Shown: one piece after another, positions 1 through 56,778 of the stretch | Numbering within the stretch: position 1 is the first letter of the stretch | Layout of the letters: each line of letters opens with the position of its first letter | Assembly (NCBI GenBank): GCA_020633435.1 | Contig: JACKDP010000002.1 | Coordinates: 695,788 to 759,787, forward strand | Length of the DNA: 64,000 bases | Source of the DNA: Myxococcales bacterium | GTDB taxonomy: Bacteria; Myxococcota_A; Bradymonadia; UBA7976; UBA1532 | Direction: 5' to 3' | Notes under the pieces: generated by a model | Seen by the model: the letters and a program-made list of their open reading frames with translations, nothing else | Databases searched by the model: none | Told to the model about the DNA's origin: nothing | Position numbers and translations under genes: made by a program

Positions 1-186
1 GCGTCGCCCCGGCGGCCCGCCTCGACCACCGCCTCCGTCCGGCCCCCGACCTCCACCGCCAAGATGGCGGCAGCCACCACGCGGCCCACCACCTGAGGCG
101 GCCCCACCGGCTCGTCGAGGGTGTCCTCCTCCCCGCGCCTCGACACCGCTGCACCGGGCCCCGGCGGCTGCTAGACTCGCCCCGGC

Positions 187-7693: not shown

Positions 7694-9490
<1,797 letters not shown>

Positions 9491-9638
9491 CAACGCTCCG
9501 TGGGCAGCGGGCCGCCCCGAGGGGCGAGGGGTACACGACGCCCGCAGGATACGCGAGGTCGGCCCGAAGCTGAACCGCGCTCGCAACGCCCCCCGCGCCC
9601 GCGGCGTTCTCTCTTGCAGATCAGGGCCTTGCGCTGCC

Positions 9639-12317: not shown

Positions 12318-12364
12318 GCCGAAAACGAGTCTACGCGCGCGAGCGCCGAAGCGGTAGGTGCAAG

Positions 12365-18449: not shown

Positions 18450-18486
18450 GGGGGCTGCCCCTGGTCAGGGTGGCGGGTCCGGGGGG

Positions 18487-23154: not shown

Positions 23155-24245
23155 TCAGGGGGCCAGGACCTCCAGGGTGTCGACGGCGCCGAACGCCTGC
23201 CGCGACGCCCCGCCTGGCACGTAGATGCGGCCGTCCAGGGTCGCCGCCGCCATGCCGTGGCGGGGGTGCGGCATGGCCGGCAGGCGGACCCAGCGATCCG
23301 TCGCCCCGTGCCAGGCCTCCACGGCGTCGAAGACCCCGCTGGCCGCGCCGCGGTTGCCCTCCCCGCCGATGACGTACAGCCAGCCATCCAGCACGGCCGC
23401 GGCCGTCCCGCCTCGCGACGTCGGCATGGGCGCCCCGGACGCCCAGGTGCCCCGCGCGGGATCGAAGACGTCCACCCGGTCGACGTGGCTCTCGATGTCA
23501 GCGGACCGGCCGCCGGCGATGACCAGGCGCCCGTCGACGGCCCCCGCGGCCATGTGGTCGCGGGGCGTGGGCAGGTCGGGCAAGGCCTCCCAGGTGTCGG
23601 CCGCGGGATCGTAGCGGTCGACGAGCGCCACCGCCCGGCCCCCGCCCAGGCCGCCAGCGAGGTAGATGAGCCCGTCGATGACGGCCACCCCGGACGCCCC
23701 CCGCGTCCGGGCCGGGGGCAGCGGGGCGCGCTCCTCCCAGGTCCCGACGGCTGGATCCAGGCGGAAGGCGCGCCCCTCGGCGGCGAACCCCTGGACGAGG
23801 TAGCCCAGCACGTAGAGGCGCCCATCCACCACGGCGGCGTTGGCGTGGTGCAGCCGCACGGGCAGCGGCGGCCCCGCACGCCAGGCGCCGATCGACGGCT
23901 CGAAGATGCGGACATCATTGACGATTCTGGCCTGACCGTCGAAGCCGCCGAGGACCCAGATGGCGTCGCCGGTGGCCACCACGGCGATCTCCTGGATGGC
24001 GCCTCCCCGACGGCCGGGCCGGGCGCCCACCGCTGGGCAGGCGGCGCGTCCGCCAGGCCCGCGTCCGCCAGGCCCGCGTCGGCCGGGCCCGCGTCAGCCG
24101 GGCCCGCGCCGCCCGCGTCGGCGAGCCCCGCGTCGGCCGCGGCGTCGACGGTGGCGTCCACCGGCGGGCAGGCGTCGACGCTGGCGCCCGGGCCGCCGTC
24201 GTCGCAGCCCGCGAGGGCGAGGGCGAGGGCGAGGGCGCGCCTCAT
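23155..24245 (-). CDS. Kelch-repeat beta-propeller lipoprotein (frame break between signal peptide and propeller)
   Basis: Six Kelch-like blades (GG..GG....V..YDP....W). Lipoprotein signal [14 protein letters not shown] at 24245, followed by a DAG-repeat linker in a different frame from the propeller (GTG 24030). Confidence 0.6.
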
Positions 24246-27200: not shown

Positions 27201-28497
27201 TGCCGATCCACCCAGGCCTGGAAGCTGAACGCTTCGCTGACCTGCCGGTGGATGGAGGCGTCCTCGTCGCAGTCGTACCGTCCGCCCGGCGCCACGCCGC
27301 ACAGCAGCCGGTTCTCGACCGCCAGGACGGAGATGAGGCGCAGGCCGCCGCGCCACGCCCGCTCGAGCCAGTCGACATAGGCCTGCTGGTGGGTGCGGGA
27401 GTACCAGTGCGGCCAGCCGCGGAAGTCGGGCCAGCCGCCGGGATCGTGGCCGAGGGGCTCGCCGACGGCCGCCACGATGGGGTTCGTCCCGCACACGCCG
27501 TGGCCCTCCAGGCCGTTCTGGGTGCAGGTCGCACCGCTGCACAGCCCCGAGCGGGCGCCGCAGCAGTGCAGGGCCTGGGCGGGATCCTCGCAGCCGAGGG
27601 GCGAGGCGGCGTCGTAGGCCTCCCCCTGGATGAAGCCCCCGCCGAACGCCAGGCTCGACATCTGGTGCAGGTGGGCGTCCGCGAAGCCCCAGAGGGCCGC
27701 GCCCGACCCGGGTCGGCAGGCCAGCGTGCAGAAGTCGCAGGCGGTCTCGCCAAAGGCGGGCTCGCACGACCCCGCGTTGGCGTCGCCGTCGTCGCAGAGC
27801 TCCACGCCCGCCTGGACGACGCCGTCGCCGCAGCGGGCCGGCTGGCAGGTGTTGCGGCAGGCGTCCGTGTCGACGCGGTTGCCGTCGTCGCAGCCCTCCA
27901 CGCCGGCCTGCACGACGCCGTCGCCGCAGCGGGCCGGCTGGCAGGTGTTGCGGCAGGCGTCCGTGTCGACGCGGTTGCCATCGTCGCAGCCCTCGACCCC
28001 CGCCTGCACCACGCCGTCGCCGCAGCGGGCCGGCTGGCAGATGTTGCGGCAGGCGTCGGTGTCGACGCGGTTGCCGTCGTCGCAGCCCTCGCCCGGATCG
28101 ACGACGCCGTCGCCGCAGGTGGCCGGCACCATGGCGTCGGGAGGCAGCACGCTGGCGTCCCCGGCCGGCGGGCCCGCGTCCGATCCCGGGACCTCGCCGC
28201 CCCCCGCGCCCGCCATGCCGGCGTCTGCGCCCGGGACCTCGCCGCCGCCCGCGCCCACCTCCCCGCCGGCGCCGCCGTCACCGCCGACGCCGCCCGCATC
28301 GCGGCCAGGCGCCCCAGCCGTCCCGCCAGCGCCACCGCCCGCGCCGCCCCGCCCGCGCCGCCGCCATCGCCGGGCCGCGCGTCTGGCGTCACCACCGCGC
28401 CATCGCACGGGCTCGCCCCGCACGTCTCCCCATCCGACGCCGTCCCCGCATCACACCCGAGGACGAGCACCAGCACCCAGCACCGCCAGCCAGCCAT
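24242..28497 (-). CDS. giant modular exoprotein: lipoprotein signal, Gly-rich linker, 3 Myxococcus Cys-rich repeats, an M19 membrane-dipeptidase-like domain, and 13 tandem 45-aa Cys-rich repeats
   Basis: [29 protein letters not shown] repeated 3 times (Myxo disulfide repeat). [30 protein letters not shown] resembles peptidase M19. C-terminal repeats of the form CxxDxECxSGxCxxGxCxxCxxHxDCGxxxWCDxxGxC. Signal peptide [15 protein letters not shown] at 28497 is in a different frame from the main ORF (GTG 28423). Confidence 0.75.
24260..24800. repeat. near-identical tandem duplication (2 x about 270 bp) inside the Cys-rich repeat array, which extends with 135-bp periodicity to about 25990
   Basis: Long stretches beginning ggcaggcgtgcccgttggcccacttcggctggcacgag...gccatgggccccgcactcccggcagaagccggcgacgcagtgcc recur almost perfectly. 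The + strand ORF 24357-25322 shows the same periodic peptide. Confidence 0.7.
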
Positions 28498-35280: not shown

Positions 35281-35447
35281 GGCGGGCAGCCTACACCACC
35301 GCCCGCGCGATGGCGAGGACGGAATCGGACCCCCGAAGCCCGCCCGCGAGACCTCTCCCGCGTAGCCACATGCCTACATCATCTTGTTGAAATCAAAGGG
35401 GAATTCTCGCTTGCTCGGCACCACCCCCGGGCCCTACTCTCCGCGCC

Positions 35448-37633
35448 ATGCGGTACCCCCTGTTGCTGGTCCTGGCGGTGGCGGCGTGTGACGGGCCAGT
35501 CGCCCGGCCAGCCGCGCCAGTGAGCGCCGCGGCAGCCCGGCGACAGCCGCGCCCGCGACGGCAGCCCCCGCGCCGCAGGTCGTCCGCCCCGAGGACCTGC
35601 CCCTCATCGGCCTGCAGGAGCTCGCCCAGGCGCGGGCCCGCCTCGAGGGGCTGGCCGCGTCGGCGCCACCGCCGGCGGTCGTCGACGCCCTCATGGGCCT
35701 CGCCACCGAGGAGCTGAAGGCCGGCACCGTCGAGGCCGCCCAGCAGGCCCTGGAGCGCGCCGCCCTCGTGCTGGCCGACGCGCCCCCCGAGGCCGACGCC
35801 CGCCGCGAGCTGCTGCTCTTCCTGCGGGGGCTGGCGGCGCTGCGCCTGGGCGAGCAGCGCGGCTGCCGGGAGCACCACGGGCCGCGCAGCTGCATCCTGC
35901 CGCTCACCGGGGACGCGGTGCACCCCGATCCGGCCCCGGCCCGCGCGTCCATGGCGGCCTTCCAGGCCCTGGCGGATCGCACGCCCCCGGGCGAGTGGCG
36001 GCACCACACCAGCCGCTGGCTGCTCAACATCGCGGCGATGGCCGCCGGGGCCTGGCCGGATGGCCTGGCCCCGGCGGACCGCCTCACCTTCCCCACCGCC
36101 CCGTTCAAGGCGTTCCCCAACGTCGCTGGCGCCCTGGGCGTCGACGCCTACGACCACGCCGGCGGCGCCCTGGCCGACGACTTCGACGGCGACGGCCGCC
36201 TGGACCTGATCTCCACGAGCTTCCACCCGGCCGAGCCGCCGCGGTTCTGGCGGGCCGACGGCGCCGGCGGCTTCGTGGCCGAGGACGCCGGCCTCGGGGG
36301 CGTGCTCGGCGGCCTGCACATCGTGCACGGCGACTACGACGGCGACGGCGACCTCGATCTCTACCTGCCGCGCGGCGCGTGGATGCGCGCGGCGGGGCGC
36401 CTGCCGGCCGCGCTGCTGCGCAACGACGGGGGCCGCTTCACCGACGTGGCCGCCGCCGTCGGCCTGGCCGACGCCCAGCCCAGCCAGGCGGCGGCCTGGG
36501 CCGACTGCGATGGCGACGGCGATCTGGACCTGTACGTGGGCGTCGAGACGGAGCCGGGGCTCCCCAGCAGTCGGCTTTATCGCAATGATGACGGGCACTT
36601 CACCGACATCGCCGCCGCCGCGGGCGTGACCAACGACCGCTACGCCAAGGGCGTGGCGTGGGGCGACTACGACGGCGATCGCTGGCCCGACCTGTACGTG
36701 AGCAACCTGCACGGGAAGAACCGGCTGTACCACAACCGGGGGGACTGCACCTTCGAGGACGTCGCCGCGCAGGCCGGCGTGGAGGGGCCGGATGACAGCT
36801 TCGCGACGTGGTTCTGGGACTTCGACGACGACGGCCACCTGGACCTCTGGGTGGGGGCCTACACCCTCGCGGGCGCCCCCGACCACCTCGCCTACGTCGC
36901 GGCCAGCCACACCGGCGACCCGCACCCGGCCGCCGTCTCCCGGCTCTACCGCGGCGATGGCCAGGGGCGCTTCACCGACGTCGCGCCGGCGATGGGCCTG
37001 GCGGCGGCGACGCTGCCCATGGGCGCGGGCTTCGGGGACGTCGATCAGGATGGCTGGCAGGACGTGTACCTGGGCACGGGGGCGCCGGAGCTCGACACCC
37101 TCGTGCCCAACAAGCTCTACCGCAACGTCGCCGGGCAGCGGTTCGAGGACGTGACCGTCGCGGCCGGCGTCGGCCACTTGCAGAAGGGCCACGGCGTCGT
37201 CTTCGCCGACCTGGACGACGACGGGGATCAGGATCTCTGGGAGCAGATGGGCGGGTTCTTCGAGAACGACGCGTTCTTCAACGCGCTCTACGAGAACCCG
37301 GGCTTCGGGGGCCACTGGATCGACGTCGAGCTGCGCGGCCGGCGCAGCAACCGCTTTGGCGTCGGCGCCCACCTCTTCGTCGAGGCGGACGGCCACACCC
37401 GCCACCGCGTCGTCGGCTTCGGCTCGAGCTTCGGCAGCCGGCCCCTGCGCGAGAACATCGGCCTGGGGAGCGCCACCCGCATCACCCGGCTCATCGTGTG
37501 GTGGCCCGCGACGGACGAGCGCCAGCTCTTCACCGACGTGCCGGTGGACGCCCACCTGCGCATCGTCGAGAGCGACGACACCCTCATCCGGCTGGCGCGG
37601 CCCGCCACCCCGCTGGCCACCGGCCCGCGCTGA
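35448..37633 (+). CDS. ASPIC/UnbV (CRTAC1-like) lipoprotein with FG-GAP repeats (frame break after signal peptide)
   Basis: FG-GAP/VCBS repeats (DFDGDGRLDL, DYDGDGDLDLY, DCDGDGDLDLYVG, DYDGDRWPDLYV, DFDDDGHLDLWV). C-terminal UnbV_ASPIC-like block. Lipobox LAVAAC at 35448 in frame 0; the body is in frame 2 from before 35693. Confidence 0.75.
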
Positions 37634-37638
37634 CCCGG

Positions 37639-38217
37639 CTACTTCAGCCGGAAGCTCTGGGCCACCGTCTCGAAGGTGGGCAAGAGGGCGTCGAAGCGGC
37701 GCGAGGGCGACGAGCACGTCACCACGAACGCCGTCTTTTCGGGCACATAGATGTAGTACAGGTGGTGCGTCGGCTCGCTGATGCCGTCGTCGTCCGTGAT
37801 GATCCGGCGGACGCGCAGGTCACCCACGCTGTAGTTGCGGACGTCGCGCTCGTGGGCCGCGCCGCCCATCATCATCCTCGAGAAGCGCTGGGCCTGCTTC
37901 CAGTAGTCCTCGGGGCTCATGGCGCTGCCGAGGGGCTCCGCCACCACGATGCACATGGCCGTCGGCTCGTCCGACGCGTTGCAGGTGATGAGCTTGCCGC
38001 CGTGGCTGCGCCAGCCCTCGGGGCAGCCCAGGCTGAAGCCCTCCCCCTCGACCGTCGAGAGCGCGACCTGGGCCCCGGCCGGCGCGGCGGGCGGCGGCCA
38101 GAACATCACCGCCAGGACGCCACCGCCGGCGGCGAGGACGATGCCGATGGCGACGAGGACGCCCAGCCGGCGGCGCTTCTGGAGGGCATCCTGGAACGCG
38201 TCGGTGTGGCTCGACAT
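37639..38217 (-). CDS. membrane-anchored hypothetical protein
   Basis: MSSHTD...RRLGVLVAIGIVLAAGGGVLAVMFW TM segment followed by a 150-aa domain. The start overlaps the upstream aminotransferase stop. Confidence 0.5.
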   Translation of the reverse strand: MSSHTDAFQDALQKRRRLGVLVAIGIVLAAGGGVLAVMFWPPPAAPAGAQVALSTVEGEGFSLGCPEGWRSHGGKLITCNASDEPTAMCIVVAEPLGSAMSPEDYWKQAQRFSRMMMGGAAHERDVRNYSVGDLRVRRIITDDDGISEPTHHLYYIYVPEKTAFVVTCSSPSRRFDALLPTFETVAQSFRLK

Positions 38218-41768: not shown

Positions 41769-41947
41769 GCGCGTGGCCTGCGCAGGGGACCCGACGCGTC
41801 GGGCCACCCCTGACCGGCGACGCGGGCGGGCCCTCGACCGGGGGCGCGCCGCGTGACACCCCGCCCGGCGCGGGGCTCAGGTCGATCACGGGAGGTCGGG
41901 CGAGCGCGGGGAGAGCGCTGGCCGGGCGAGTCCCCGCGGAGAGGAAG

Positions 41948-44900
41948 ATGAACCACTCGAAGTCCTGGCGCCTCGCGGCGGCGCTCGTCCTGCTCGGTGG
42001 CCCGGCCTGGGGCCAGTTCCCCAACGGGGCCGACTCGCAGGACATGGAGACCGGCCAGTTCTGCGCCCCCGAGCTGGGGCGCGTGCAGCTCTCGCTGGAC
42101 GCCTACGGCGCCCACGGCTCGTCCACGTCAGCCGGCGAGAACGCCCAGTTCAACCCCGCCGACGACGTCCCCGATCAGGGGTTCGTGAACACGATGTTCG
42201 AGTCGATGCCCTTCCTCTGCCGCACGCAGGGCGGGCAGACGGCGGGCACATGGCTGGAGGCCGGCGACTTCGCGGGGCAGCGCGCCCGGGTGCAGGTGGT
42301 CGACGGGGTGGTCAACTCCCAGTTCTCCGCCAACGGCATCGAGGTGTCGGCCCGGTACTGGCTGGACTGCACCGAGCTGCACCAGTGCTACACCTTCACC
42401 AACATCACCAACGCCGCCATGGACGTGGTGGCGCTGACCCACTACATCGACGGCGACCTCTTCTTCGGCGAGGGCGGCCTGGGCAACGACTACGGGGCCA
42501 CCAGCGTGGGCGCCCCGAAGACGCTCTGGGAGTTCGACGAGGGCGATGATCCCAATGATCCCACGACCTTCGTGGGCATGTACGGGGAGAACGGCGCCGA
42601 CGCGTTCCTGAACTCGTGGGAGATCGGCCAGTACTCCGAGCAGCGCGGCCGCATCGCCAACACCGCCGGTGGCTGCGCCATCCTGCGCAACGACATCAAC
42701 ATGCGCGGCCAGAACGTCGACGTGGACGGCGACTTCATCACCGACCGCGGCTTCGACGTGACGCTGGCGCTGCGCTACGACATGGGCCCGCTGGAGCCAG
42801 GCGAGGCCAGCCGCGAGCTGTGCTACGTGGTGCAGTGGGGCGTGGGCCTGCCCTGCTCCGATGAGGATCTCGACGAGATCTGCCTGCCCGACGACAACTG
42901 CCCGAGCGTGCCCAACCCCGACCAGGTGGACGAGGACGGCGACGGCGTGGGCGACGTCTGCGACAACTGCCCCAAGACGGTGAACCCCGAGCAGGCGGAC
43001 ACCGACGAGGACGGCCAGGGCGACGCCTGCGACCGCATCTTCTGCGAGCCGGACGGCCAGCCCGAGGTCTGCGACGGCATCGACAACGACTGCGACGGCC
43101 TCGTCGACATCAACCCCGATGGCTCCCCGGTGGTCGTGCCCGGCGCCTGCGCCACCGGCCTGGCCGGCCAGTGCGCGGTGGGCAACTGGGCCTGCGTCGG
43201 CGGCCGCTCCCGCTGCGCGCCCGACATCTCCCCCAGCCCCGAGGTCTGCGACCTGCTGGACAACGACTGCGACGGCAACATCGACGAGGGCACCCGCAAC
43301 GCCTGCGGCACCTGCGGCGGGCGCCCCCCCGAGACGTGCGACGGCACCGACGAGGACTGCGACGGCACCATCGACGAGGGCGATCTCTGCCCCGCGGGCC
43401 AGGGCTGCTACGAGGGCCGCTGCCTCGGCAGCTGCGGCGAGGGCGGCGCCTGCCCCAACGGCAACGACACCTTCTGCGCCGACGGCGTGTGCGTGCCGTG
43501 GTGCCAGGTCAACGGCTGTGACGTCGCCGGGCAGGTCTGCGAGGCCAACGGGGCCTGCGTGGATCCCTGCGCCGGCGTGCAGTGCGGCGCGGGCGAGGCC
43601 TGCCTGGACGGCGAGTGCGGCCCGGCCCACTGCGTGCGCACCGGCTGCCCCGACGGCCAGCGCTGCCGGCCCGGCGGCTGCGAGCCCGACCCGTGCGCCG
43701 GCCGCGACTGCGGCGACGCCAGCTTCTGCCGCGAGGGCGAGTGCGTGTTCTCCTGCGCCGGCGTGGCCTGCCCCGCCGCCCAGGCGTGCTTCGACGGCCT
43801 GTGCGATGACACCGGCTGCGGCCCCGTGGGCTGCCCCGCCGAGGGCGAGCTCTGCGTCGAGGGCGTCTGCGCCGAGGATCCCTGCAAGGACGTGGCCTGC
43901 GGCGACGCGGAGACCTGCGTGATGGGCGCCTGCGTGCCCGATCCCTGCCAGGGCGTCCGCTGCCCCCAGTACCAGATCTGCGCCGTCGTGCTGGGCACCG
44001 CCCAGTGCGTCGCCAACTGGCCCACCTTCCCGGCCGAGACCGATCCCGGCGCCGGCGGGGCGGGCGGCCAGGGCGGCGCGGGCGGCCAGGGTGGCGCCGG
44101 CGGCCAGGGTGGCGCGGGCGGCCAGGGTGGCGCCGGTGGCCAGGGTGGCGCCGGGGGCGGCTTCTTCTGCGGCCCCGAAGACTGCGGCGAGCTGCCCCCC
44201 GGCCTGCACTGTCCGGACGGCTCCATGATCTCGCCGACCTGCGAGATCCAGCCCAACGACGCCTGCGACTGGGTCTTCCCCGCCTGCCCGGGCGAGGCGT
44301 GCGGCCCCGCGGCCGGCCACGACTGCGCGCCCGGCGCCGTCTGCGACTTCCCCGACAACGCCTGCGGGGCCGGCGCGGCGGGCATCTGCCAGACGCGGCC
44401 GGAGGCCTGCCCCGAGATCTACGCGCCGGTCTGCGGGTGCGATGGCGTCGAGTACGACAACGAGTGCTTCGCCCTCGGCGCCGGCACCGATGTCGCGTCG
44501 GTGGGCGCCTGCGAAGGCCCCCGCCCCTGCCGCGAGGACGAGTGCGGCCCGCCGCCCCCCGTGGCGCAGTGTGAGGACGGCAGCTTCCCCGTGATCGCGT
44601 GTGCGCGCGCCGAGGACGGCATGTGCGGCTGGCAGGTGAGCTGCCCCGAGCCGGCCGAGGCCTGCGGCCTGCCCGCCGACAGCGGCGACTGCGACGCCGA
44701 CATCCCGCGCTGGTTCCACAACGCCCAGACCGGCCAGTGCGAGCAGTTCTCGTACGGCGGCTGCGGCGGAAACGCCAACAACTTCGAGACGTTGGAGGCC
44801 TGCCAGGCGACCTGCAACGTGGACGGCCCCGTGTGCCGGGACGGCTCGTTCGCCAGCATCCTGCTGGGCGGCCGCTTCTCGGCCGGCGAGTGCTTCGGGT

Positions 44901-45319
44901 TCTGCCGCCAGGAGCTCAACCTGCACGCCTCGCCCTTCGCCGGCCCGATGCCGAGCTGCGACTGGGTGGACCTGGACCTGTGCGACGACGGCAACCCCGA
45001 CGTTGGCTGCGTGCGCCACACGGGCACACTGACGCCGGCCGGCCACGACCGCGCCCGCGCCATCGCCCGCGCGCTCCTCGGCGTGGCCCTCGAGCGCGTC
45101 TACCCCTGCGGCGACGAGTGCCCGGAGGACCTGCCCGGCATCAGCCTGCGCCTCCGCCGGGACGGCGTCGACAGCGAGCACGCCTACAGCGGGGGCCATG
45201 CCCCCGACGTCCTGGCCGACGCCGACGCCTGGTTCAACGACGTCCTGCGCGCCCTGCGCGGGTGCACCCCCTCGCCCTTCATCCAGCCCAACGCCGACTG
45301 CCGCCCCCTGGCCCCCTGA
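41948..45319 (+). CDS. large multidomain exoprotein: N-terminal unknown domain, TSP3 repeats, MopE-like CxDxDNDCDG motifs, EGF-like Cys repeats, GGAGGQ linker, Kazal domain, Kunitz/BPTI domain
   Basis: Signal peptide [23 protein letters not shown] with a GGAGAGGAAG Shine-Dalgarno sequence. [41 protein letters not shown] and [15 protein letters not shown]. Kazal: [22 protein letters not shown]. Kunitz: [51 protein letters not shown]. Confidence 0.8.
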
Positions 45320-45360: not shown

Positions 45361-46764
45361 ATGGCACGCATTCTGGTGATCGACGACAACGAGACCATGC
45401 GGCTGGGCATCGCCCACACCGTGCAACGCCTCGGCCACGAGGTCGACCAGGCCGGCAGCGGCCCCGAGGGCATCGAGAAGTTCAAGAAGCGGCCCGCCGA
45501 CTTCGTGATCTCGGACCTCAAGATGGAAGGCCTGGACGGCATCGGCGTGCTGGAGGGCATCCGGCAGCTCGACCCCGACGCCCTGCTCATGATCGTCACG
45601 GGCTTCGGCACCATCGAGACGGCCGTGAAGGCCATGCAGCTCGGGGCCTTCGACTTCATCACCAAGCCCTTCCCGCCCCAGGTCCTGCGGCTCAAGGTCG
45701 AGGCCGCGCTGGCCGTCATCGAGCAGCGCCACGCCCGCGAGAAGCTGGAGCGGCACAACGAGGTCCTGCGCGAGGAGGTCGAGGAGCGCTACCACCTCGA
45801 CCCGAAGCGCCCCGAGGTGGACCACGACCTCGTCGGCGAGAGCCCGGCCATCCAGCGCATCATCGAGACCATCCGCCGCGTGGCCGGCGCTGAGAGCACC
45901 GTCTACATCTACGGCGAGAGCGGCACCGGCAAGGAGCTCGTCGCCCGCGCCCTGCACCGCACCAGCCGCCGCAAGGACGGCCCCTTCATCAAGGTCAACT
46001 GCGGCGCCCTCGCCGAGAGCATCCTGGAGAGCGAGCTCTTCGGCCACGAGCGCGGCTCGTTCACCAACGCCCACAAGCGCAAGCTCGGCCGCTTCGAGCT
46101 CGCCGACGGCGGCACCCTCTTCCTCGACGAGATCGGCGACATCAGCCCCGCCATCCAGCTCAAGCTCCTGCGCGTCCTGCAGGAGCGCGAGTTCGAGCGC
46201 GTGGGCGGCGAGGAGACCGTCAAGGTCGACGTCCGCGTCGTCAGCGCCACCAACCGCGACATGCGCAAGCTCGTCGACGAGGGCAAGTTCCGCGAAGACC
46301 TCTTCTACCGCCTGCACATCGTGCCCATCGAGCTCCCCCCGCTGCGCGAGCGCGCCACCGACATCGGCCTGCTGGCGAAGCACTTCATCGAGAAGCTCCA
46401 CCGCCGCGCCGGCAGCCGCGCCCGCGCCCTCAGCCCCGACGCCCTCGAAGCCCTCAAGCGCTACCCCTGGCCCGGCAACGTCCGCGAGCTGGAGAACGCC
46501 ATCGAGGTCGCCCTGGTCTTCGCCGACGGCGACCGCCTGGAGCTCAAGGACCTGCCCGCCCACATCAGCGGCGCCCCGCCCCGCGACTTCTTGCCGGTGC
46601 TGCAAGGGGACCAGGCGCTGCCCGACATCCTGGATGGGCTGGAGAAGCAGCTGATCTTGCGGGCGTTCGAGCAGGCGAACGGGGTGAAGACGGAGTGCGC
46701 GCGGCTGCTGGGCGTGAAGACGAGCGCGCTGTACTACAAGCTGGAGAAGTATGGGATTGGATAG
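45361..46764 (+). CDS. NtrC-family sigma-54-dependent response regulator (receiver plus AAA+ plus HTH_8)
   Basis: Receiver domain [16 protein letters not shown]...DLKMEGLDG...K. GESGTGKE Walker A and GSFTNA (GAFTGA variant). C-terminal Fis HTH. Confidence 0.9.
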
Positions 46765-46775
46765 ACCGCCAACTG

Positions 46776-47627
46776 CTACTCGATCGCGGCGAGGCGGCAT
46801 ACCGTCCCTTTGACCTTGCAGCGACGCTGAAGTTCACACTCGCCGAGTGCCAGCTTCGAACAGTCTCTGTCAGACACTGGAACGCACTCGAGCCCAGACC
46901 CCGAGCACACCGCCGTGCAGGAGCCACTTTGCGCACAAACGCTTGTGCTGTTGCAGATTTTACTTACCGTCGCCGAAGTCCGGACTTCTAGGCTCCTCGA
47001 CAACGGGCATGACAAGTCGACCGATAGCACACAGCCGAGCTCTGCAAGCCGAAGACAGAACGCCGTACTCATCTCGGTGTCGAGTTCGTTGATTCCCTCG
47101 ACGAACTCCGGTCTGCGAGCGGGTGCTTCGCCTCGATTCGGAGGGCAGGCTACCTCGAACAGAGTGCCTTGGATGGTCGCGGAGACCATCACGCCGTAGG
47201 CCAGATTCGCAGCTGTCTGAACCTGGCAGGCGACAGCTGGCTCCTTCTTGATGAGTTCCTTCAACGGCATTTCACTTCGAAGCCCGTAGTTCGTTGACAG
47301 GCCGGCGCTCTCCGCAACAAGCCTGCTCAGCTGCCCCGAACACGAGATATCGCCCGTTGCCATGGTCTGCCCAGTCTCATCGCTAATGCGCACGACGGGG
47401 ACCTCCGAGATGAAGGCGCCTTCAGGCACCGACTCGGTCTCTACCGCGAAGGTCCAGCCCACCGGCAAAGCTTGTTGGAGCCGTTCAACCGGGATACCGC
47501 AGACCCTGAGGGCCTGAGTTCCAACGAACAACGCGGGGGGGTCTGGCTTGGCCGTGGCCGGTGGCGAACTTGGGACTGCCAGGGCCAGAGCCGCCCATCG
47601 AGAATACCGCTTCACTCTACCCTGCAC
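46776..47627 (-). CDS. Cys-rich secreted hypothetical protein encoded in a low-GC islet
   Basis: 283-aa ORF in a roughly 57% GC segment, where random ORFs are unlikely. N-terminal signal-like RWAALALAV. About 18 Cys residues concentrated in the C-terminal half. Confidence 0.45.
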   Translation of the reverse strand: MQGRVKRYSRWAALALAVPSSPPATAKPDPPALFVGTQALRVCGIPVERLQQALPVGWTFAVETESVPEGAFISEVPVVRISDETGQTMATGDISCSGQLSRLVAESAGLSTNYGLRSEMPLKELIKKEPAVACQVQTAANLAYGVMVSATIQGTLFEVACPPNRGEAPARRPEFVEGINELDTEMSTAFCLRLAELGCVLSVDLSCPLSRSLEVRTSATVSKICNSTSVCAQSGSCTAVCSGSGLECVPVSDRDCSKLALGECELQRRCKVKGTVCRLAAIE

Positions 47628-47808: not shown

Positions 47809-49407
47809 TCACTCCCCCGCCAGGCAGACGCCGATGGCGTCGCAGTCCCCCTGGGCGGCCAGCGCGCAGGCGTACTCGTCGCGGGTGAGGCTGGCGCAGG
47901 CGGCGAGGCAGAAGTCGCGGCCGCCGAGGCCGATGCAGGCTTGCAGGCCGTTGTCGCAGAAGGCGGCGCACTCGTCGGGGCTGGGGCGGAAGTCGGGGTC
48001 GCCTTCGCAGATGGGGGCGAGCTCGCGGTTGTTGCGGTAGACGATCTGGCGGACTTCGGCGCAGGTGGCGGCCTCGACGTTGGCGACCTGCTCGTCGGTG
48101 GGGGGCTGGTCGAGGCAGCCGGCGGTGCAGTTGACGCTCAGCTCGGGCGGGATGATGCGCGGGGGGCAGGCTTCTTCGAGGCAGCCCTGCAGGCGGCCGC
48201 AGAAGCGGGCGCAGCGGTCCTGGCCTTCGGGATCGCCGTAGCACGCGAGGACGTCGTCGCAGGTGGGGGCGAGCTGGACGCAGCGCAGGTTGGCGGCGTC
48301 GAAGGTGGCGCAGTCGGCCAGGCAGTCGGCGAGGGGGGCGTCGGTGCAGGGGCCGATGGTGTCGGCGCAGAGGGTCTCGCACGCGGCGGCGGCGTCGGCG
48401 TCGCAGGCGGCGTCGAGGGCGGCGTCCTGGGCGCGCCGCTCGGCGACGACGTCGCTGCACAGGGCGGCCTGGTGGGCCTGGACGGCGTCGGCGGTGGGCG
48501 GATCGACGACGCAGGCGTCGACGCACCGGCCGACCCAGCCATCGGGCAGGCTGCCGGCGGCGCACTCGCGGAAGATGCACTGGGCGGTGCGCTGGCAGTC
48601 GGCCTGGCAGAGCTGCCGAGGGTCGGGCGGGGGGCCCTCGAAGCAGGCGGCGAGGTCCGGGCAGGCGTCGGCGGCGGCGGCGCAGTCGCGCACAGGGGGC
48701 GGGATGTCGGCGCAGAAGCCCGCGCACTCGGCGGCCGAGACGAAGCCGCAGGCGTCGGCCAGATCGCAGAGGGCGTCGCACTGGCCGGGCGCGGGGGGCG
48801 CGTCGAAGCAGGCGGTGAAGGCGTCGCAGCTCTCGGCGGCGTCGACGCACGCGGTCAGGCGACCGGGGAGCTGGCTGCAGAACTGGCCACACTGGCGCGG
48901 CGGGATGCCGAAGCCGCAGGCGTTGGCCTGCTCGCAGCGCGCGGCGCAGGCGTCGGAGACGGGGGGCGGCTGCTCCCCGCTGCAGATGGCCCCAAGCTGG
49001 GGGATGGCCTGCTGAAGCCGGGCGTTGAACTGGTCGCAGGTGCCCGCGGTGGCGGCGCGCAGGCGGTCGGCGGGCTGCTGGCAGGCGCCGTCGCAGATGC
49101 CGGTGAGCGCCCGCTCACCGATGTCGGGGCAGGCCGGCACCAGGCACTCGTCCAGGCGGTCGCAGAAGGCGGCGCAGGCGTCGTCGGGCGGCGGCGCGGC
49201 GTCAGGGGGTACGCTGGCGTCGCGGGCGGGTGGGCGAGGCCCGGCGTCGGCCGGCCCGCCCTGAGCGTCGGCGCCCCCGCCGCCGGTGGCATCCGCGGTG
49301 GCGCCCGCGTCCGCCTGGGCGTCGGGCGTGGTGTCGTCGTCGGGGTTCGACCCCTCTTCGATGCAGCCCGACAGGGCGATGAGCGCGATCAAGGCCAGGT
49401 ACTTCAT
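47809..49407 (-). CDS. Cys-rich repeat lipoprotein
   Basis: MKYLALIALIALSGC lipobox. Repeats of the pattern C..(F/L)C..L..CGF(G/V)...C..FC. Acidic low-complexity linker after the signal. Confidence 0.65.
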   Translation of the reverse strand: MKYLALIALIALSGCIEEGSNPDDDTTPDAQADAGATADATGGGGADAQGGPADAGPRPPARDASVPPDAAPPPDDACAAFCDRLDECLVPACPDIGERALTGICDGACQQPADRLRAATAGTCDQFNARLQQAIPQLGAICSGEQPPPVSDACAARCEQANACGFGIPPRQCGQFCSQLPGRLTACVDAAESCDAFTACFDAPPAPGQCDALCDLADACGFVSAAECAGFCADIPPPVRDCAAAADACPDLAACFEGPPPDPRQLCQADCQRTAQCIFRECAAGSLPDGWVGRCVDACVVDPPTADAVQAHQAALCSDVVAERRAQDAALDAACDADAAAACETLCADTIGPCTDAPLADCLADCATFDAANLRCVQLAPTCDDVLACYGDPEGQDRCARFCGRLQGCLEEACPPRIIPPELSVNCTAGCLDQPPTDEQVANVEAATCAEVRQIVYRNNRELAPICEGDPDFRPSPDECAAFCDNGLQACIGLGGRDFCLAACASLTRDEYACALAAQGDCDAIGVCLAGE

Positions 49408-49576
49408 GTCGCCCCCCGGGGCCTGGTTCGGAGCGTCAGGATAGCCTGATCGCCCGGAGAGCGTCTCTCCGTCTGTCTGTGGCCGACCTGCAGGTTGTGG
49501 CGAGCGGCCCGCGTGGGGTCTATTGGGATGTGGGGCGCCGGCCGCTCCGACCCACGGACCGAGGACAGACGACGTG

Positions 49577-51340
49577 ATGACGACGGCAATCCGAGCCATC
49601 CTGGCGTGCGCGCTCGTGGCGGCGACCCTGGGCTGCGACGACGACGGCGGCGAGGGGACGACAGACGGCGGCGCCGACGGCATGGCAGGCGCGGGTGGCG
49701 GGGCGGGTGCTGGCGGCGCGGGTGGCGTGGCTGGCATGGGCGGCGACGGTGGCGAGGGCGGCGTGGCCGGCATGGGCGGCGCCGGCGGCGAGCCGCCGCC
49801 CGCCGAGATCTGTGGCGATGGCGCCGACAACGATGGTGACGACGCCGTCGACTGCGACGACGCCGACTGCGCCGGCTTCCGGGCCTGCGAGGTGGCGGCG
49901 ATCTGCGATCCGCTCGCCCGCCCCATCGGCCTCGGCGAGGTGCAGACCGGCGTCTCGGAGGGCGCGGGGCGGTTCGAGGGGAGCTGCGGCGGGGGCGGCG
50001 AGAGCGCGGAGATCGTGTTCGCCTTCACCCTGGAGGCCTCGACGCTGGCCTGCCTCTCCACGGCCGGCAGCCGGTTCGACACCGTCCTGTACGTCCGCGC
50101 GGGCGACTGCACCGACGCCGCGGCCGAGATCGCCTGCAATGACGAGAGCTTGCGGGCGCCGGGCGGCGCATCGGAGATCGAGGGGCGCTTCGACGCGGGC
50201 GTCACCTACTACGTCTTCCTGGACCGGTTCGACGACGGCCAGAACGCGCCGGCCGACTTCCGCCTGGACCTGCTGGAGGGCCCCTGCGGGCAGGGTCCGC
50301 CGTGCGAGGTGGACGCCCAGTGCGATGGCCGCTGCGGCCCGGCCGGGCGGTGCGTCGGCTGCCTGGCGGACGCGGACTGCGCCGTCGGGCGGTGCGATCC
50401 GGGCGGCCGCTGCGCGGCGTGTCTGGCGGACGCCGACTGCGCGGAGGGCGACACCTGCGCGGATGGCAGCTGCACCCGCGACGGCGTGCCGGACTGCGTC
50501 GAGGCCTGCCAGGTCGTCCTCGACTGCTTCGACCCCGGCGCTCCCCCCGAGGCCTGCGAGGCCGGATGCCGCGCGGAGTCGACGCCGGAGGACCGCCTGT
50601 GCGTGACGTCGGCGCCCTCCTGCGAGGCCGTCTCGGCGTGCTTCGAGCCGGCGGATCGCTGCGACGGCGTGGTCTGCGACGATGGCCTCGTCTGCACCCC
50701 CGCCACGGGCCTCTGCGAAGACCCGCTGGCCCCGACCTGCGAGGAGGCCTGCGCGGCGCTCTCCGCCTGCGGGTTCGTGCCGGAGGCCTCGGTGCCGGCC
50801 TGCATCGACGGCTGCCGGAACGACTCGATCGCGGCCCAGCGCGCCTGCGTGGTGGCGGCGGGCTGTGACGAGGCGGCCATCGAGGCCTGCTCCGCCCCGC
50901 CCTGCGGCGGGCAGCTCTGCCAGGCCGGCCAGGCCTGCTTCGCCGAGGTCTGCCGCGACCTGCAGCCCGTCCACGACTGCGCCGATCCGGCGCCCCTCGC
51001 GGTGGGCCGGTTCTACGGGACGACCGCCGACGCGGCGTCCGCCCAGGCCGGGAGCTGCGGCGGGCAGGCGAGCCCGGAGGCCGTCTACGTGCTCGACGCC
51101 CCGGCGGGGGACTACTGCCTGCGAACCACGGGCAGCCAGATCGACTCCGTCCTGTACGTCCGCCAGGTGTGCGATGCCCCGGACTCGGAGCTGGCCTGCA
51201 ACGACGACAGCCCGCTCGCTGGGGGCCTCGCGTCGGCCCTGACCGTCGCGGGCGGCGCGCCGCTCTACGTCTTCGTCGACGCCCTGGGCGGCGGTGGGCC
51301 GTACGCCCTGATCGTCACCGAAGGCGCCTGCGCGCCCTGA
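49577..51340 (+). CDS. Cys-rich lipoprotein with two PPC-like domains
   Basis: MTTAIRAILACALVAATLGC. GGAGG linker. Two copies of ...SCGG...E.V(F/Y)......Y.L.T.GS..D(T/S)VLYVR...C......ACNDD(S/E). Central repeats of the form CxACLADADCAxGxC. Confidence 0.7.
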   Translation: MTTAIRAILACALVAATLGCDDDGGEGTTDGGADGMAGAGGGAGAGGAGGVAGMGGDGGEGGVAGMGGAGGEPPPAEICGDGADNDGDDAVDCDDADCAGFRACEVAAICDPLARPIGLGEVQTGVSEGAGRFEGSCGGGGESAEIVFAFTLEASTLACLSTAGSRFDTVLYVRAGDCTDAAAEIACNDESLRAPGGASEIEGRFDAGVTYYVFLDRFDDGQNAPADFRLDLLEGPCGQGPPCEVDAQCDGRCGPAGRCVGCLADADCAVGRCDPGGRCAACLADADCAEGDTCADGSCTRDGVPDCVEACQVVLDCFDPGAPPEACEAGCRAESTPEDRLCVTSAPSCEAVSACFEPADRCDGVVCDDGLVCTPATGLCEDPLAPTCEEACAALSACGFVPEASVPACIDGCRNDSIAAQRACVVAAGCDEAAIEACSAPPCGGQLCQAGQACFAEVCRDLQPVHDCADPAPLAVGRFYGTTADAASAQAGSCGGQASPEAVYVLDAPAGDYCLRTTGSQIDSVLYVRQVCDAPDSELACNDDSPLAGGLASALTVAGGAPLYVFVDALGGGGPYALIVTEGACAP

Positions 51341-53431: not shown

Positions 53432-56400
53432 TCAGTCGCCTTCGGGGTTGTCGTCGGCTTCGGGTGGATCAGGCAATTCGTCCTCGGGCCAGTCGGCGAG
53501 GGAGAAGCCTTCGGGCATGACGGCCTTGTTGAGATTGAGGGCTCGCCGGATACCGAGGACACCTTCCAAGTCAGCCTTGCGCAGATCCGCCTGTCTGAGG
53601 TCTGTGCCGGTCAGGTTGGCAGACAGGAGCACCGTCCCGGCAAGCGTCGCGTTCCACGAGCGTGGCTTCCATGAGCATTGCGCGCATCAGGTTGGCGTCT
53701 CCCCCAACAGGCATCCACCAGACGGGCGCCGAACTGGCGCTTTCAGATCGGCGCCCTCCAAAGCGGGCTCCTTCAGCGTTGCTTCGATCGAGGACTGCCC
53801 CGTCTAGGTTCGCGTTGTTGAGATTGGCCCCTTCGAGCTTGGCCCCTTCGAGATTGGCCCCCCTGAGGTTGGCCCCTTCGAGGTTGGCCTTCTTGAGGTT
53901 GGCTCCTCTGAGGTTGGCCCCCTCGAGGTTGGCTCCCTCGAGCTTTGCGTCTTCCAGGTTGGCTGCCTCGAGATCGGCCCCTTCGATTACCGCCTGTCTC
54001 AGGCTGGTCCCGTTGAGGGTGGCGTGCCTGAGATTGGCGCGGACGAGATTCGCGTCATCCACGTTCGCCATGTTGAGTTGGGCTTCGGTGACCGTGGCGG
54101 AGGCCATGCTGGCACCACGGAGGTCTGCTCCATCGAGCTTCGCTCGTGAAAGGTCAGCACCCGCGAGGTTGGCCCCCGCGAGACCAGCCCCCTGGAGGTT
54201 GGCGTCGCCGAAATCAGCCCCGACCAGCATCGCCGAGCGTAGGTTTGCTCCCTCAAGGTTGGCCCCCCGAAATCGTGCATCCGAGAGCTTTACGCCTCCA
54301 AGCAGCTGGCCGCTGAGATCAGCCCCGCAGAGGTTCGCCCCGCTGAGGTCGGCCCTGCTCAAGCGAGCCTCGTGCAGGTCGGCGTTCTCAAGGTTGCTTC
54401 GGCTGAGCGGGAGGTTCGAGAGATCCAGCCCACATCCGTCAATTCGCACCATTCGTAGCTCAGCAGGAGTTCCTCGCGCAATGTGGAGCGCGACGAGCGA
54501 CCGAACAGGATCCGCGTCCGCCAGTTGAAGCCGCGTCTCACCAAGTTCACAACGGAGGGCCAGAGCGACCCTGCGAAGGTGGAGGCGCAGATCCTCGCGG
54601 GGAATGCTGGTCGGGCCAAGCTGATTGCCCAGGCGCTCATCGCGAAAGCAGTCTTCAGCCACCCGGGCGATGGAGGCGGCCTGGCCACCCCTTCTCGCAA
54701 GGGCGACGAGAAAGTCGAAGGACTCATTGTCTTCCTCAAGCAACCGCGCTCCAAGGAGCGCCGCCTCCTCGAACGGTTCCGTGGTCAGCCGAGCCCGCCA
54801 GTACCAGGCCACAAGGTAGTCGCGAAAGGTACGGTCGCCGGTCTCGACTGCCAGGTCGTCAGTCAAAGGCTCAAACTGCAGGCCCAGCATGACGCCGCGA
54901 TTGATGAGCTCGAAGGCAGGGCCTGCCTCCAACTCCAACTCCTGCCGCAGGACGACTTCGACATGGCGTTCGAGCAGGGCCTTCCCGACGTGGGCCTTGC
55001 GCCTGCTCTCCCACGCAATGCGCCCGAGAAGCCAGAGCAGGGCTGTCGCCGGCTCCGCATCCTCGCTCACGAGGCCTCGCATCGCGAGGCGGCGCCGCAG
55101 CTCCATCGCACTTCTGCGCACGACCTTATGGCCCTTGTCGTGGACCGGGTCCGGCTCGTACACGCACTTCGATCGGGTGAGCTGCTCGAAGTAGCGGCCG
55201 TAAACGTCAACGACGTCGCTGCCCTCAGCGGCCTCGACGCGCCAGGTCCAGGCGATCATGAAGAGCAGAATCGGCGTGCGCGCCAACTCCGCCATGCCGC
55301 GGGCCTCGATGGCGGCTCGGGTGATGGTCAGGCGTTCTGGATCGACCCGGTCCGTGGCGTTCGTGCGCCAGGCTTCAATCCACTGGTCGATCTGGCTGTT
55401 CGAGAAGCTCTGGATTCTGAAGCGCCGCACCGTCCCGTTGAGACCCTGGAGCAAGGCTGGCCGGGAGAACACGACGATCCGGCAACGATCGGTCGTGTGG
55501 TCGTCCAGGTGCTGGAACAGATCGCCGAGCTTCTGGGCGTCCAGGTGTACCTCGTCCAGGCCATCAAGGATGATGAGGACCCGCTGGCCATCGGTCGGCA
55601 GCGCAAGGGCCGCGTCGTCGGTCCCCAGGTGCGGGCCGTCCGCGTCGGCGAGCTGCCCGCGCTGGGCCCGCCGGACCATCGTGGCCAGGCTGGCGTCGTA
55701 GGCGTGGGCACAGCGGACGAAGACCGGAAACCAGGCGTCCACGGGGGCAGCCGCATTGAGCCAGGCCGCGGCCAGGTCGGCGGCGAGGCGGCGAGCCGAC
55801 AACGACTTGCCATGGCCGAAGTCGGCCTGGACGACGGCCACGGATGGCTTGTCCCCGAGCCAGGAGGTCAGCTTCGCCTGGATTGGCCTGGGGTTCTCGT
55901 GGGGTCCCTCGGGCGCGCAGACGGGCTCCACGTAGACCCGCCCCAGGGGCATGGGCGGCAGGTCGGGGGGGCTCTCGCGCCGGTTGCCGAACACGTGGTG
56001 GTCGGGCCAGATGCAGAAGTCCCAGGCCAGGTGCTCCCGGATGGCCGCCGCGTGCGCACCCGAGGAGAGGGCGGCCCGCAGCGGCTCGCCCACTGGCGAC
56101 GCGCGCAGCCGGGCGAAGGCAGCCCGGAAGTCCCGGTGGAACTGCTGGATGGTGTGAGGTTCCGCTGGCGCGTCGACCAGGTCCTCGTCAGCGAACAGCC
56201 CCCAGAGCGTCTTGAACGCCGGGCTGCGGGTGGGGCAGCCCCGCAGAAGTTCCAGGTGCTCGAGGCTGGGCTTCCCATCCGCGGTGGTCGACGCGGGCAG
56301 CGAGCGCTCCGTGGCCGTTCGCACCACCGCTTCGAATCCTTTTTTCTTTCCATTCAAGATGTCGGCATTGCCCGCCCAGTGGGCGCGCCAGGCCTGGGCG

Positions 56401-56606
56401 AAGGCGCCGATGACCATCGCCTGGTGGGCGGCCGCCGCGTCCGCGGCCACGGGTGCGCGCAGCGCCAGGACCTCCTTGAGGGAGCCGATCAGCGAAGCGA
56501 CGGCCGCGAGGCTGTTCTGCGGGTCGCCGTCCTGGGCCTTCCAGACCTTGAGTGCCAGTTCGATGGCCTTCGCCGTCAGCCCGGCCACACTCGTTGGATC
56601 CACCAT
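53432..56606 (-). CDS. STAND-class NTPase (NACHT-like P-loop plus helical arm) with an N-terminal unknown domain and C-terminal pentapeptide-repeat array. There is an apparent frameshift near 53650
   Basis: Walker A AVVQADFGHGKSLSARRLA. Walker B RVLIILDGLDEV. Long A(N/D)LxG pentapeptide run (ANLEGANLRGANLKKANLEGANL...). The repeat continues in another frame (ORF 53432-53632: ANLTGTDLRQADLRKADLEG) after the stop at 53571. Start MVDPTSV at 56606 with a GGAGGTG Shine-Dalgarno sequence. Confidence 0.8.
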
Positions 56607-56778
56607 GCCCACCTCCCAGTGTGGATGTCGCACATGCTGTCGGGGCTGGCAAGGGTCGGCGGGCGCCGGTCGTCAAGCGGCCGGGCCTGCTGCCGACGCC
56701 TGTCCGGCCGCACCGCTGGGCGTCGTCTCGTTCGCCGTGTCGCGCACCGCAGCATAGACCGGCTCCAACGAGGAACCC

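Follow-up and report, generated by a model that had tools for sequence, protein, structure and literature searches.

Background

Kunitz/BPTI domains are regarded as essentially animal, and proteins combining Kunitz with Kazal modules, e.g., WFIKKN and papilin, are likewise known from animals. The gene considered here, located at positions 41948–45319 (+) of a 64,000-nucleotide stretch (hereafter, the window) of contig JACKDP010000002.1 of the Myxococcales bacterium assembly GCA_020633435.1 (Bradymonadia), encodes a bacterial protein harboring both modules behind a surface-protein body. With a confidence somewhat above even, this protein can be regarded as a Sec-exported, disulfide-rich extracellular chimera of a surface ectodomain and a cassette of canonical protease inhibitors. 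The Kazal–Kunitz pair as such is recurrent in this bacterial group, and the unusual part is its fusion to the surface-protein body; what is new in the gene is its fusion architecture, the acidic reactive sites, and the membership in an undescribed family of Mago-like domains.

On the side of the Kunitz domain, comparison is possible with the solved domains of boophilin, SmCI, and TFPI, which also carry several inhibitor heads per chain. [quoted passage not shown] Its P3–P3′ residues were defined crystallographically, it binds to subtilisin in a substrate-like manner, and it has two disulfides, II–IV and III–VI (PMC3082530). Pacifastin, likewise an animal-type family of small disulfide-rich inhibitors, is represented in myxobacterial genomes, as reported for pacifastin-like domains in a 2026 paper, the consulted passages of which hold no description of the C-terminal domain or the bacterial Kunitz/Kazal cassettes discussed below (PMC13388995). 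The window protein itself is devoid of a pacifastin module.

The orthologues of the N-terminal part of the window protein resemble in their architecture the TraA-type receptors, TraA combining an N-terminal variable binding domain with a Cys-rich stalk. TraA carries the MYXO-CTERM tag, by which proteins are sorted to the cell surface for lipid anchoring and which is cleaved by myxosortase (PMC11980579).

Kunitz and Kazal Modules of the Window Protein

In the whole-protein Pfam scan, Kunitz_BPTI (PF00014, MEROPS I2) was matched at amino acids (aa) 905–956 with 72.9 bits (cut-off 21; E 2.5e-20), covering positions 1–52 of the 53 in the profile. The cysteines 906, 915, 931, 939, 952, and 956 display the canonical spacing C-x8-C-x15-C-x7-C-x12-C-x3-C, and the core motif YGGCxGNxNNF is present; hence, the canonical Kunitz signature noticed near the C-terminus in an initial annotation, made from the sequence alone, is borne out by the score and the spacing of the cysteines. 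The domain aligned over its full length with those of boophilin, SmCI, and TFPI (per-domain E down to 1e-19), sharing with them the six cysteines and the core motif. It differs from them in its bacterial host, in its partner domains (Mago-like, CGP, and MopE), which are not those of the animal inhibitors, and in its reactive site. The basic P1 residue (Lys/Arg) of these inhibitors, typical of the trypsin-directed members of the family and a mark of function rather than of membership, is replaced by Asp916 (codon 44693–44695), which takes the place of the P1 Lys/Arg in the alignments with boophilin D1 and with TFPI K1 and K2. At the same time, P1′ is Ala917, the canonical small residue, and P2′ is Asp. 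An acidic P1 is by no means confined to this protein: in the non-animal set, P1 was most often Asp (29 cases), with 13 cases each of Glu and Arg, 9 of Lys, and 7 of Gln, and 26 of the 191 animal-labelled Kunitz domains in the match list also have Asp at P1.

The Kazal module is less conspicuous, and the whole-protein Pfam scan did not report it at E ≤ 1. When the segment was scanned in isolation, Kazal_1 (PF00050) scored 38.3 bits (cut-off 21) and Kazal_2 (PF07648) scored 26.3 bits (cut-off 22.8), with only positions 1–29 of 49 in the profile covered (both profiles belong to MEROPS I1). The end-to-end alignment to CrSPI-1 domain 1 (E 3e-8) corroborates the earlier suggestion of a Kazal-like module ahead of the Kunitz domain; LDTI was matched as well. 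The cysteines of the core are 814, 821, 829, 831, 840, and 855, preceded by those of the extension (785, 793, 799, and 806). Of the classical six-Cys pattern (I–V, II–IV, III–VI), Cys II, III, IV, and VI are represented by 821, 829, 840, and 855, respectively, and Cys V is missing, as it is in CrSPI-1 domain 1. The loop C-P-P1-x-Y-x-P-V-C and the hairpin G-x-x-Y-x-N-x-C, hallmarks of non-classical group I-like domains, are both present. Mismatched spacing of the cysteines on alignment had been named in the initial annotation as a result that would speak against the domains; the Kunitz spacing proved canonical, whereas the Kazal one departed from the classical pattern and agreed with the non-classical one.

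Common to the window module and CrSPI-1 domain 1 are the consensus CPxxYxPVCGxxGxxYDNECFxxxAGxxxA...C, Cys at P3, Pro at P2, and a short C-terminal segment. Unlike CrSPI-1 domain 1, the window module possesses the four-Cys N-terminal extension and an extra cysteine (Cys831, in the motif CGCDG), which is kept in 103 of the 104 distinct bacterial cores compared. Since Cys V is missing and the extra cysteine is conserved this widely, the module apparently represents a distinct bacterial non-classical Kazal subtype with a conserved four-Cys extension. The alignment with CrSPI-1 places the reactive site at Cys821 (P3), Pro822 (P2), Glu823 (P1, codon 44414–44416), Ile824 (P1′), Tyr825 (P2′), and Ala826 (P3′). 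Glu at P1 contrasts with His in CrSPI-1 domain 1 and coincides with Glu in CrSPI-1 domain 2. Among the 104 bacterial cores, the scaffold is near-invariant and the positions P2–P3′ are variable, with P1 showing the highest entropy within the loop (E31, D26, A12, L10, R8, Q7).

Relatives of the Inhibitor Cassette and Their Distribution

The cassette comprises, in this order, a first CGP module, the Kazal module, a second CGP module, the Kunitz domain, and the Mago-like C-terminal domain (Table 1). The CGP modules follow the pattern C-x4-CGPxPP-x3-C-x-DG-x6-C-x5-G-x-CGW-x4-CP and have no match in Pfam. Stand-alone relatives of the cassette were found as proteins of 250–880 aa in metagenome-assembled genomes of Bradymonadia/Myxococcota (P0129, with a coverage of 87%, P0130, P0141, P0160, P0164, and P0337). 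In these proteins, a Gly-rich linker (GGAGGE)n is followed by CGP, the CGCDG-type Kazal, and Kunitz modules and, mostly, by the same C-terminal domain. The module set and order are thus those of the window protein, the identity over the cassette is 28–54%, and the Kunitz P1 is mostly acidic. Variations on this plan include P0130 ([quoted passage not shown] at NCBI), which ends in a Kazal module instead of the Mago-like domain, and P0337, in which the Kazal–CGP–Kunitz unit is tandemly repeated ahead of the C-terminal domain. In most full-length stand-alone relatives, the N-terminal signal peptide closes with a Cys; judging from this probable lipobox, they are likely lipoproteins. None of them has the supersandwich/TSP3/MopE/stalk body found at the N-terminus of the window protein.

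A pattern scan over one genome per species (185,579 species) yielded 24 confirmed bacterial Kunitz loci, which belong to a single Streptomyces isolate as well as to Myxococcota, Planctomycetota (Phycisphaerales), and Binatia. In 11 of the 24, Kunitz and Kazal-like modules are encoded in a single open reading frame (ORF), with maxima of eight Kunitz modules or of three Kunitz plus eight Kazal-like modules, and Kazal–Kunitz combinations amount to dozens of proteins in Myxococcota, Planctomycetota, and Binatia, most of them probable lipoproteins and some with domain-based names at NCBI. The view that two animal-type inhibitors in one bacterial protein are rare therefore holds across bacteria but not within these three groups. 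Together with the window locus, these relatives show that several bacterial phyla possess diversified arrays of Kunitz and Kazal (and pacifastin) modules featuring hypervariable loops and a bias toward acidic P1 residues. A literature search for characterized Kunitz/Kazal inhibitors of Myxococcota or Bradymonadales returned nothing relevant, the relatives being known from annotation only.

The Streptomyces locus (L024; Streptomyces sp. NPDC050659, NZ_JBFAIK010000028.1, positions 6001–6213) belongs to a cultured isolate outside the main groups, and its Kunitz match has Ser at P1. The gene context of P0130, P0141, and P0151 showed neither a conserved neighbor nor an NtrC gene; a gene with a Trypsin domain lies ~6 kb from P0130, which is a single case.

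The Mago-like C-terminal Domain

For the C-terminal domain, as well as for the head of the protein, no significant match was found in PDB or Pfam at the sequence level, and only the comparison of folds was informative. The fold predicted for the C-terminal domain resembles that of Mago nashi/Magoh of the exon-junction complex. The resemblance is confined to the fold, at an identity of 9–11% and with no relationship at the level of sequence. Unlike Magoh, the window domain is predicted to be extracellular and disulfide-bonded, and it belongs to a family with a conserved CPDC motif. A profile search among 1.84 billion representatives returned 695 family members, counted at 50% identity, 300 of them at E ≤ 1e-10; the family as a whole has no Pfam match. 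The domain is C-terminal in most of the 150 members listed, and in many members it is preceded by nothing but a signal peptide; a family member from Sorangium bears the name “Lipoprotein” in UniRef. The CxxC motif YGCPDCADGG is near-invariant in the family.

Three kinds of partner module recur among 132 family representatives, Kunitz and Kazal in 13 each and pacifastin in 9, and no others do. Since the pairing is exclusively with inhibitor heads, two working hypotheses can be put forward: the domain may be a protein-binding platform docking or orienting the protease, or it may be a further inhibitory module. Either way, a sizeable domain family has come to light in which nothing but protease-inhibitor modules recurs as a partner.

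The Putative Fusion Junction

The closest whole-protein homologues of the window protein, P0001 (83%), P0002 (91%), and P0003 (74%), are 690–797 aa long, give a query coverage of 52–62%, and are annotated in the sources as MYXO-CTERM or MopE-related. Over aa 1–700, the identity to these three proteins and P0009 is 63–91%. The head, the TSP3 and MopE segments, the stalk, and the Gly-rich linker are common to the orthologues and the window protein, the stalk being the last segment of the ectodomain that they share. After the linker, P0001–P0003 terminate in a ...DDCSTTP...LLLVTRRRR tail, and the window protein carries ~385 additional residues instead, i.e., the inhibitor cassette in place of the MYXO-CTERM anchor. 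It ends in ...NADCRPLAP and has none of the three parts of the tag, i.e., the Cys-containing motif, the transmembrane helix, and the tail rich in Arg (PMC11980579), so that it cannot be a substrate of myxosortase. The initial annotation held that homologues lacking the inhibitor modules would refute the domain calls. Such homologues do exist, and they are the close N-terminal orthologues, but the calls stand: the absence of the modules from the orthologues points to a fusion rather than to a false call.

The synteny agrees with this boundary. The orthologue loci share with the window the upstream neighborhood, including a fused E1 dehydrogenase gene immediately upstream (more than 10 kb are common with L003), and the genes downstream differ. 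Nucleotide homology ends at 44121 for L003 (88%) and at 44117 for L001 (81%), in both cases inside a tandem repeat encoding the linker, for which Tandem Repeats Finder (TRF) reported a period of 18, 5.3–5.5 copies, and 91–92% matches at 44053–44159. Taken together, the sequences suggest that the gene is a chimera of an orthologous ectodomain and a Kazal–Kunitz cassette joined at the Gly-linker repeat.

A breakpoint in repetitive DNA fits genuine recombination and misassembly alike, so one has to consider that a MYXO-CTERM surface gene and a gene for a Kazal–Kunitz lipoprotein were joined in silico. In this case, the 1123-aa protein would not exist, while each half would be real, the inhibitor half sitting upstream of the NtrC gene. 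The breakpoint lies precisely within the low-complexity 18-bp repeat DNA, synteny with the relatives ends there, and GGxGGx linkers occur in both parent families, so that an in-frame join would be expected even from an artefact. The cassette has been reproduced at 99.4–99.5% identity in two independent contigs from related assemblies, L008 (1345 bp), which also contains the junction of the cassette with the downstream NtrC gene, and L009 (638 bp), with the cassette only. Both are short fragments beginning 330–400 bp past the repeat, so neither reaches the fusion junction. No other contig crossing the junction was found, the window alone spanning it; a 26-mer located just 3′ of the repeat was absent from the genome and metagenome contig collections. 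Likewise, no second example of the fusion was encountered in a search space of 5.8 billion protein clusters, all of the best 120 of the 2612 N-terminal homologues having a query coverage of ≤68%.

Other features of the junction speak against an assembly error. The array is only ~110 bp long and imperfect, so it could be spanned by reads or large k-mers; neither a MYXO-CTERM nor a lipoprotein-signal remnant is present on either side; base composition and the coding signal continue unbroken across the junction. On these grounds misassembly is considered unlikely, and the genuine chimera is retained as the preferred interpretation. A real fusion would be a clean case of domain shuffling via linker-coding repeats, with a lipid anchor swapped for a functional cassette; if the fusion is an artefact, both halves stay valid, and Gly-linker repeats in GC-rich genomes of Myxococcota would have to be regarded as a possible source of false chimeric genes.

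Two differences between the syntenic loci can be mentioned apart from the junction. A gene with FG-GAP/ASPIC (UnbV) repeats (35492–37633, +) resides in a ~2.3-kb segment of the window (35294–37639) unmatched in the otherwise syntenic L003. In L001, the locus of orthologue P0001, positions 1–5555 contain two 875-aa genes with eCIS_core (extracellular contractile injection system) matches upstream of the E1 dehydrogenase gene and have no nucleotide match in the window.

Possible Mode of Action

The ectodomain (~700 aa) would represent a conserved surface protein of Bradymonadia/Myxococcota, whose close orthologues end in a Gly linker and MYXO-CTERM. In the simplest scenario, recombination between the repeats coding for the Gly linkers of both gene types would have kept the signal peptide and the ectodomain of the first gene and the passenger of the second one, with the loss of both lipid anchors. 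Deprived of these anchors, the fusion protein would either be held in place by its N-terminal head alone or be released. For the Kazal and Kunitz modules, the most likely role is that of standard-mechanism, i.e., canonical and substrate-like, inhibitors of serine proteases. Their P1 residues, Glu823 and Asp916, suggest that the targets are likely subtilisin-like (S8) or Glu/Asp-specific serine proteases rather than trypsin-like ones. Contact residues that vary while the scaffold stays fixed are the hallmark of functional canonical inhibitors such as ovomucoid and BPTI, and the third domain of ovomucoid, when given Glu at P1, inhibits the Glu-specific protease of Streptomyces. Moreover, Kazal domains with Glu at P1 (CrSPI-1 domain 2, SPIPm2) are documented to inhibit subtilisin (PMC3082530).

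The inference of the target is weaker for the Kunitz head than for the Kazal head because a precedent for Asp at P1 is lacking: we know of no Kunitz domain with this residue that inhibits a subtilase. This point weighs against the overall interpretation, as do several others: with respect to classical S1 targets, the acidic Kunitz P1 is unfavorable; Cys V of the classical pattern is missing from the Kazal module; the C-terminal domain of the window protein has a degenerate form of YGCPDCADGG, the best conserved motif of its family; and no protease gene was found among the scanned ORFs of the window. The same applies to the lack of a second fusion, of another contig across the junction, and of the 26-mer in the contig collections.

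Some of these observations would be accommodated if the Kunitz and Kazal modules were non-inhibitory disulfide-rich binding or spacer modules of an adhesin-like protein, in the manner of TFPI K3, collagen VI C5, or dendrotoxins. The rest of the window protein does consist of adhesion-type modules (the supersandwich head, TSP3, and the Cys-rich stalk). The work on P1 variants of BPTI indicates that Asp at P1 together with Asp at P2′, the combination present here, is unfavorable for classical S1 proteases, and Asp at P1 is common among the animal-labelled domains mentioned above. It is also found in the third domains of P0220 and P0236, two unlabelled proteins that are TFPI-like by sequence, and we take these domains to be counterparts of a non-inhibitory third domain of TFPI. 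On the other hand, the reactive loop is hypervariable on an invariant scaffold across the 104 Kazal-like cores, the small Ala needed for canonical binding is retained at P1′, and the P1-Glu Kazal domains cited above do inhibit subtilisin. In addition, three unrelated inhibitor families have joined the same C-terminal domain, with no recurrent non-inhibitor partner. A purely structural role of the two modules thus appears quite improbable, and an inhibitory one is preferred, the bias toward acidic P1 residues offering a testable prediction of subtilase- or Glu-specific inhibition.

A broader and more tentative proposal, to which we assign clearly less than an even chance, is that in predatory or surface-attached bacteria (Myxococcota, Planctomycetota, Binatia) the cassettes constitute an undescribed class of envelope-tethered multi-headed canonical inhibitors with Kunitz, Kazal, or pacifastin heads whose P1 is predominantly acidic, the Mago-like domain serving as a docking or inhibitory module. 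Such proteins might shield the cell against subtilisin-like or Glu-specific proteases, and the window gene would then be an anchor swap, made by recombination in Gly-linker repeats, through which a glycan-binding surface stalk came to bear this shield at its tip.

Gene Structure and the N-terminal Body

Table 1. Features of the inhibitor gene and its downstream neighbor (window coordinates)
Feature	Position	Strand	Residues (aa)	Remarks
Shine–Dalgarno-like purine-rich segment GGAGAGGAAG	41938..41947	+		Abuts ATG; read off the sequence
Signal peptide, Sec type-I-like, without lipobox Cys	41948..42016	+	1–23	Cleavage site inferred
Beta-supersandwich (galactose-mutarotase-like) domain	42017..42877	+	24–310	Predicted fold
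Thrombospondin type-3 calcium-binding repeats (DxDxDGxGDxCDNCP)	42860..43033	+	305–362	TSP_3
Three MopE-type motifs, CxDxxDxDCDGxxDE	43064..43381	+	373–387, 432–448, 462–478	
Cys-rich stalk, ~20-aa four-Cys repeats	43382..44008	+	479–687	Conserved in P0001, P0002, P0003, P0009
Gly-rich linker (GGAGGQ)n from 18-bp tandem repeat, fusion junction	44048..44161	+		TRF
CGP module 1, ~40-aa, six-Cys	44168..44290	+	741–781	Conserved in stand-alone relatives
Extended Kazal module: four-Cys N-terminal extension, then non-classical core	44300..44512	+	785–855	
CGP module 2, repeat of module 1	44528..44647	+	861–900	Between Kazal and Kunitz, as in P0337
Kunitz/BPTI domain	44663..44815	+	906–956	Pfam, Cys spacing, solved-domain alignments
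Mago-nashi-like alpha/beta domain, ~165 aa	44816..45316	+	957–1123	Predicted fold
NtrC-type sigma-54 activator gene	45361..46764	+		Response_reg + Sigma54_activat + HTH_8

The ORF starts with ATG at 41948, stops at 45317–45319, and encodes 1123 aa, 102 of them Cys. Coding-type GC content at the third codon position was found in the + frame only (GC1/GC2/GC3 = 0.74/0.58/0.88); long ORFs also run along the other strand and were dismissed as the usual artefacts of high-GC DNA. Eukaryotic contamination was ruled out by the high GC content across the window (66–78%; 72–74% in the gene region) and by the bacterial genes on both flanks. The start of the mature protein, QFPNG, is identical in the orthologues of the N-terminal part. 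An exact look-up of the full-length protein returned no database record. The sole match in the NCBIfam scan, Omp28_seleno on the TSP3-like region, was disregarded (35.6 bits vs. a cut-off of 200), and promoter and terminator scans around the gene found no sigma-70 promoter or terminator-like site.

The supersandwich head is likely glycan-binding. The TSP3 repeats and CxDxDNDCDG/MopE motifs, which the initial annotation had placed in the N-terminal half, were confirmed by profile scores over the cut-offs. TSP_3 (PF02412), with its calcium-binding motif DxDxDGxxDxxD, reached 37.7 bits (cut-off 25) in three stretches of the isolated segment but stayed below the threshold, at 18.9 bits, when the whole protein was scanned. 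Cu-binding_MopE (PF11617; cut-off 27) reached 31.8 bits in the whole protein and 60.9 bits in the isolated segment, with three repeats. The MopE motifs are, by their sequence, putative metal-binding sites. The stalk has no Pfam match.

The NtrC-type Neighbor

The position of the gene directly upstream of an NtrC-type regulator, noted in the initial annotation, was verified: the regulator gene, identified by hidden Markov model matches, begins 41 nt past the stop of the inhibitor gene on the same strand, and the independent contig L008 reproduces the adjacency. No terminator-like site was found in the 41-nt gap, and the two genes are possibly co-transcribed. The further suggestion that the activator controls the inhibitor gene, e.g., during predation or development, draws on the same proximity, but it found no support and appears very improbable. 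The regulator lies downstream of the inhibitor gene and hence is, at most, co-transcribed with it. The sigma-54 consensus TGGCAC-N5-TTGCW (≤2 mismatches) is absent from the upstream region 41769–41947, and window-wide there are six matches vs. 19 expected by chance. The adjacency is also missing in the relatives of both halves, i.e., at the orthologue loci and at those of P0130, P0141, and P0151. Finally, sigma-54 activators are frequent in the genome, and the window contains a second one, of FHA-GAF-AAA+-HTH_8 architecture, at 7694–9718 (-).

Near this second activator, genes for a Ser/Thr kinase (10470–12500) and a PrkA kinase (16218–18464) are situated, a density of signaling genes typical of Myxococcota.

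Other Genes of the Window

Directly downstream of the NtrC gene, two Cys-rich ORFs without a Pfam match are located at 46776–47627 (-) and 47809–50205 (-), the latter with an internal lipoprotein-like start, MKYLALIALIALSGC. The lowest GC content of the window (0.656) was recorded in the 46–48 kb stretch. A NACHT NTPase of 1020 aa with C-terminal pentapeptide repeats is encoded at 53571–56633 (-), within a stretch whose GC content is 0.668 vs. ~0.73 around it.

Several other genes encode extracellular-type or Cys-rich modules. The ORF at 24242–28450 (-) encodes a 1402-aa Cys-rich protein with Peptidase_M19 (membrane dipeptidase) and DUF7107, DUF4215, and Dickkopf_N-like matches. Five calcium-binding EGF domains (EGF_CA, cEGF, EGF_3), a further set of eukaryote-like extracellular modules, are encoded at 62040–63998 (-), where the gene runs off the window end. 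At the opposite end, the adjacent ORFs 175–2355 and 1944–4157 (+) each combine VWA_2 with bacterial TSP3 repeats.

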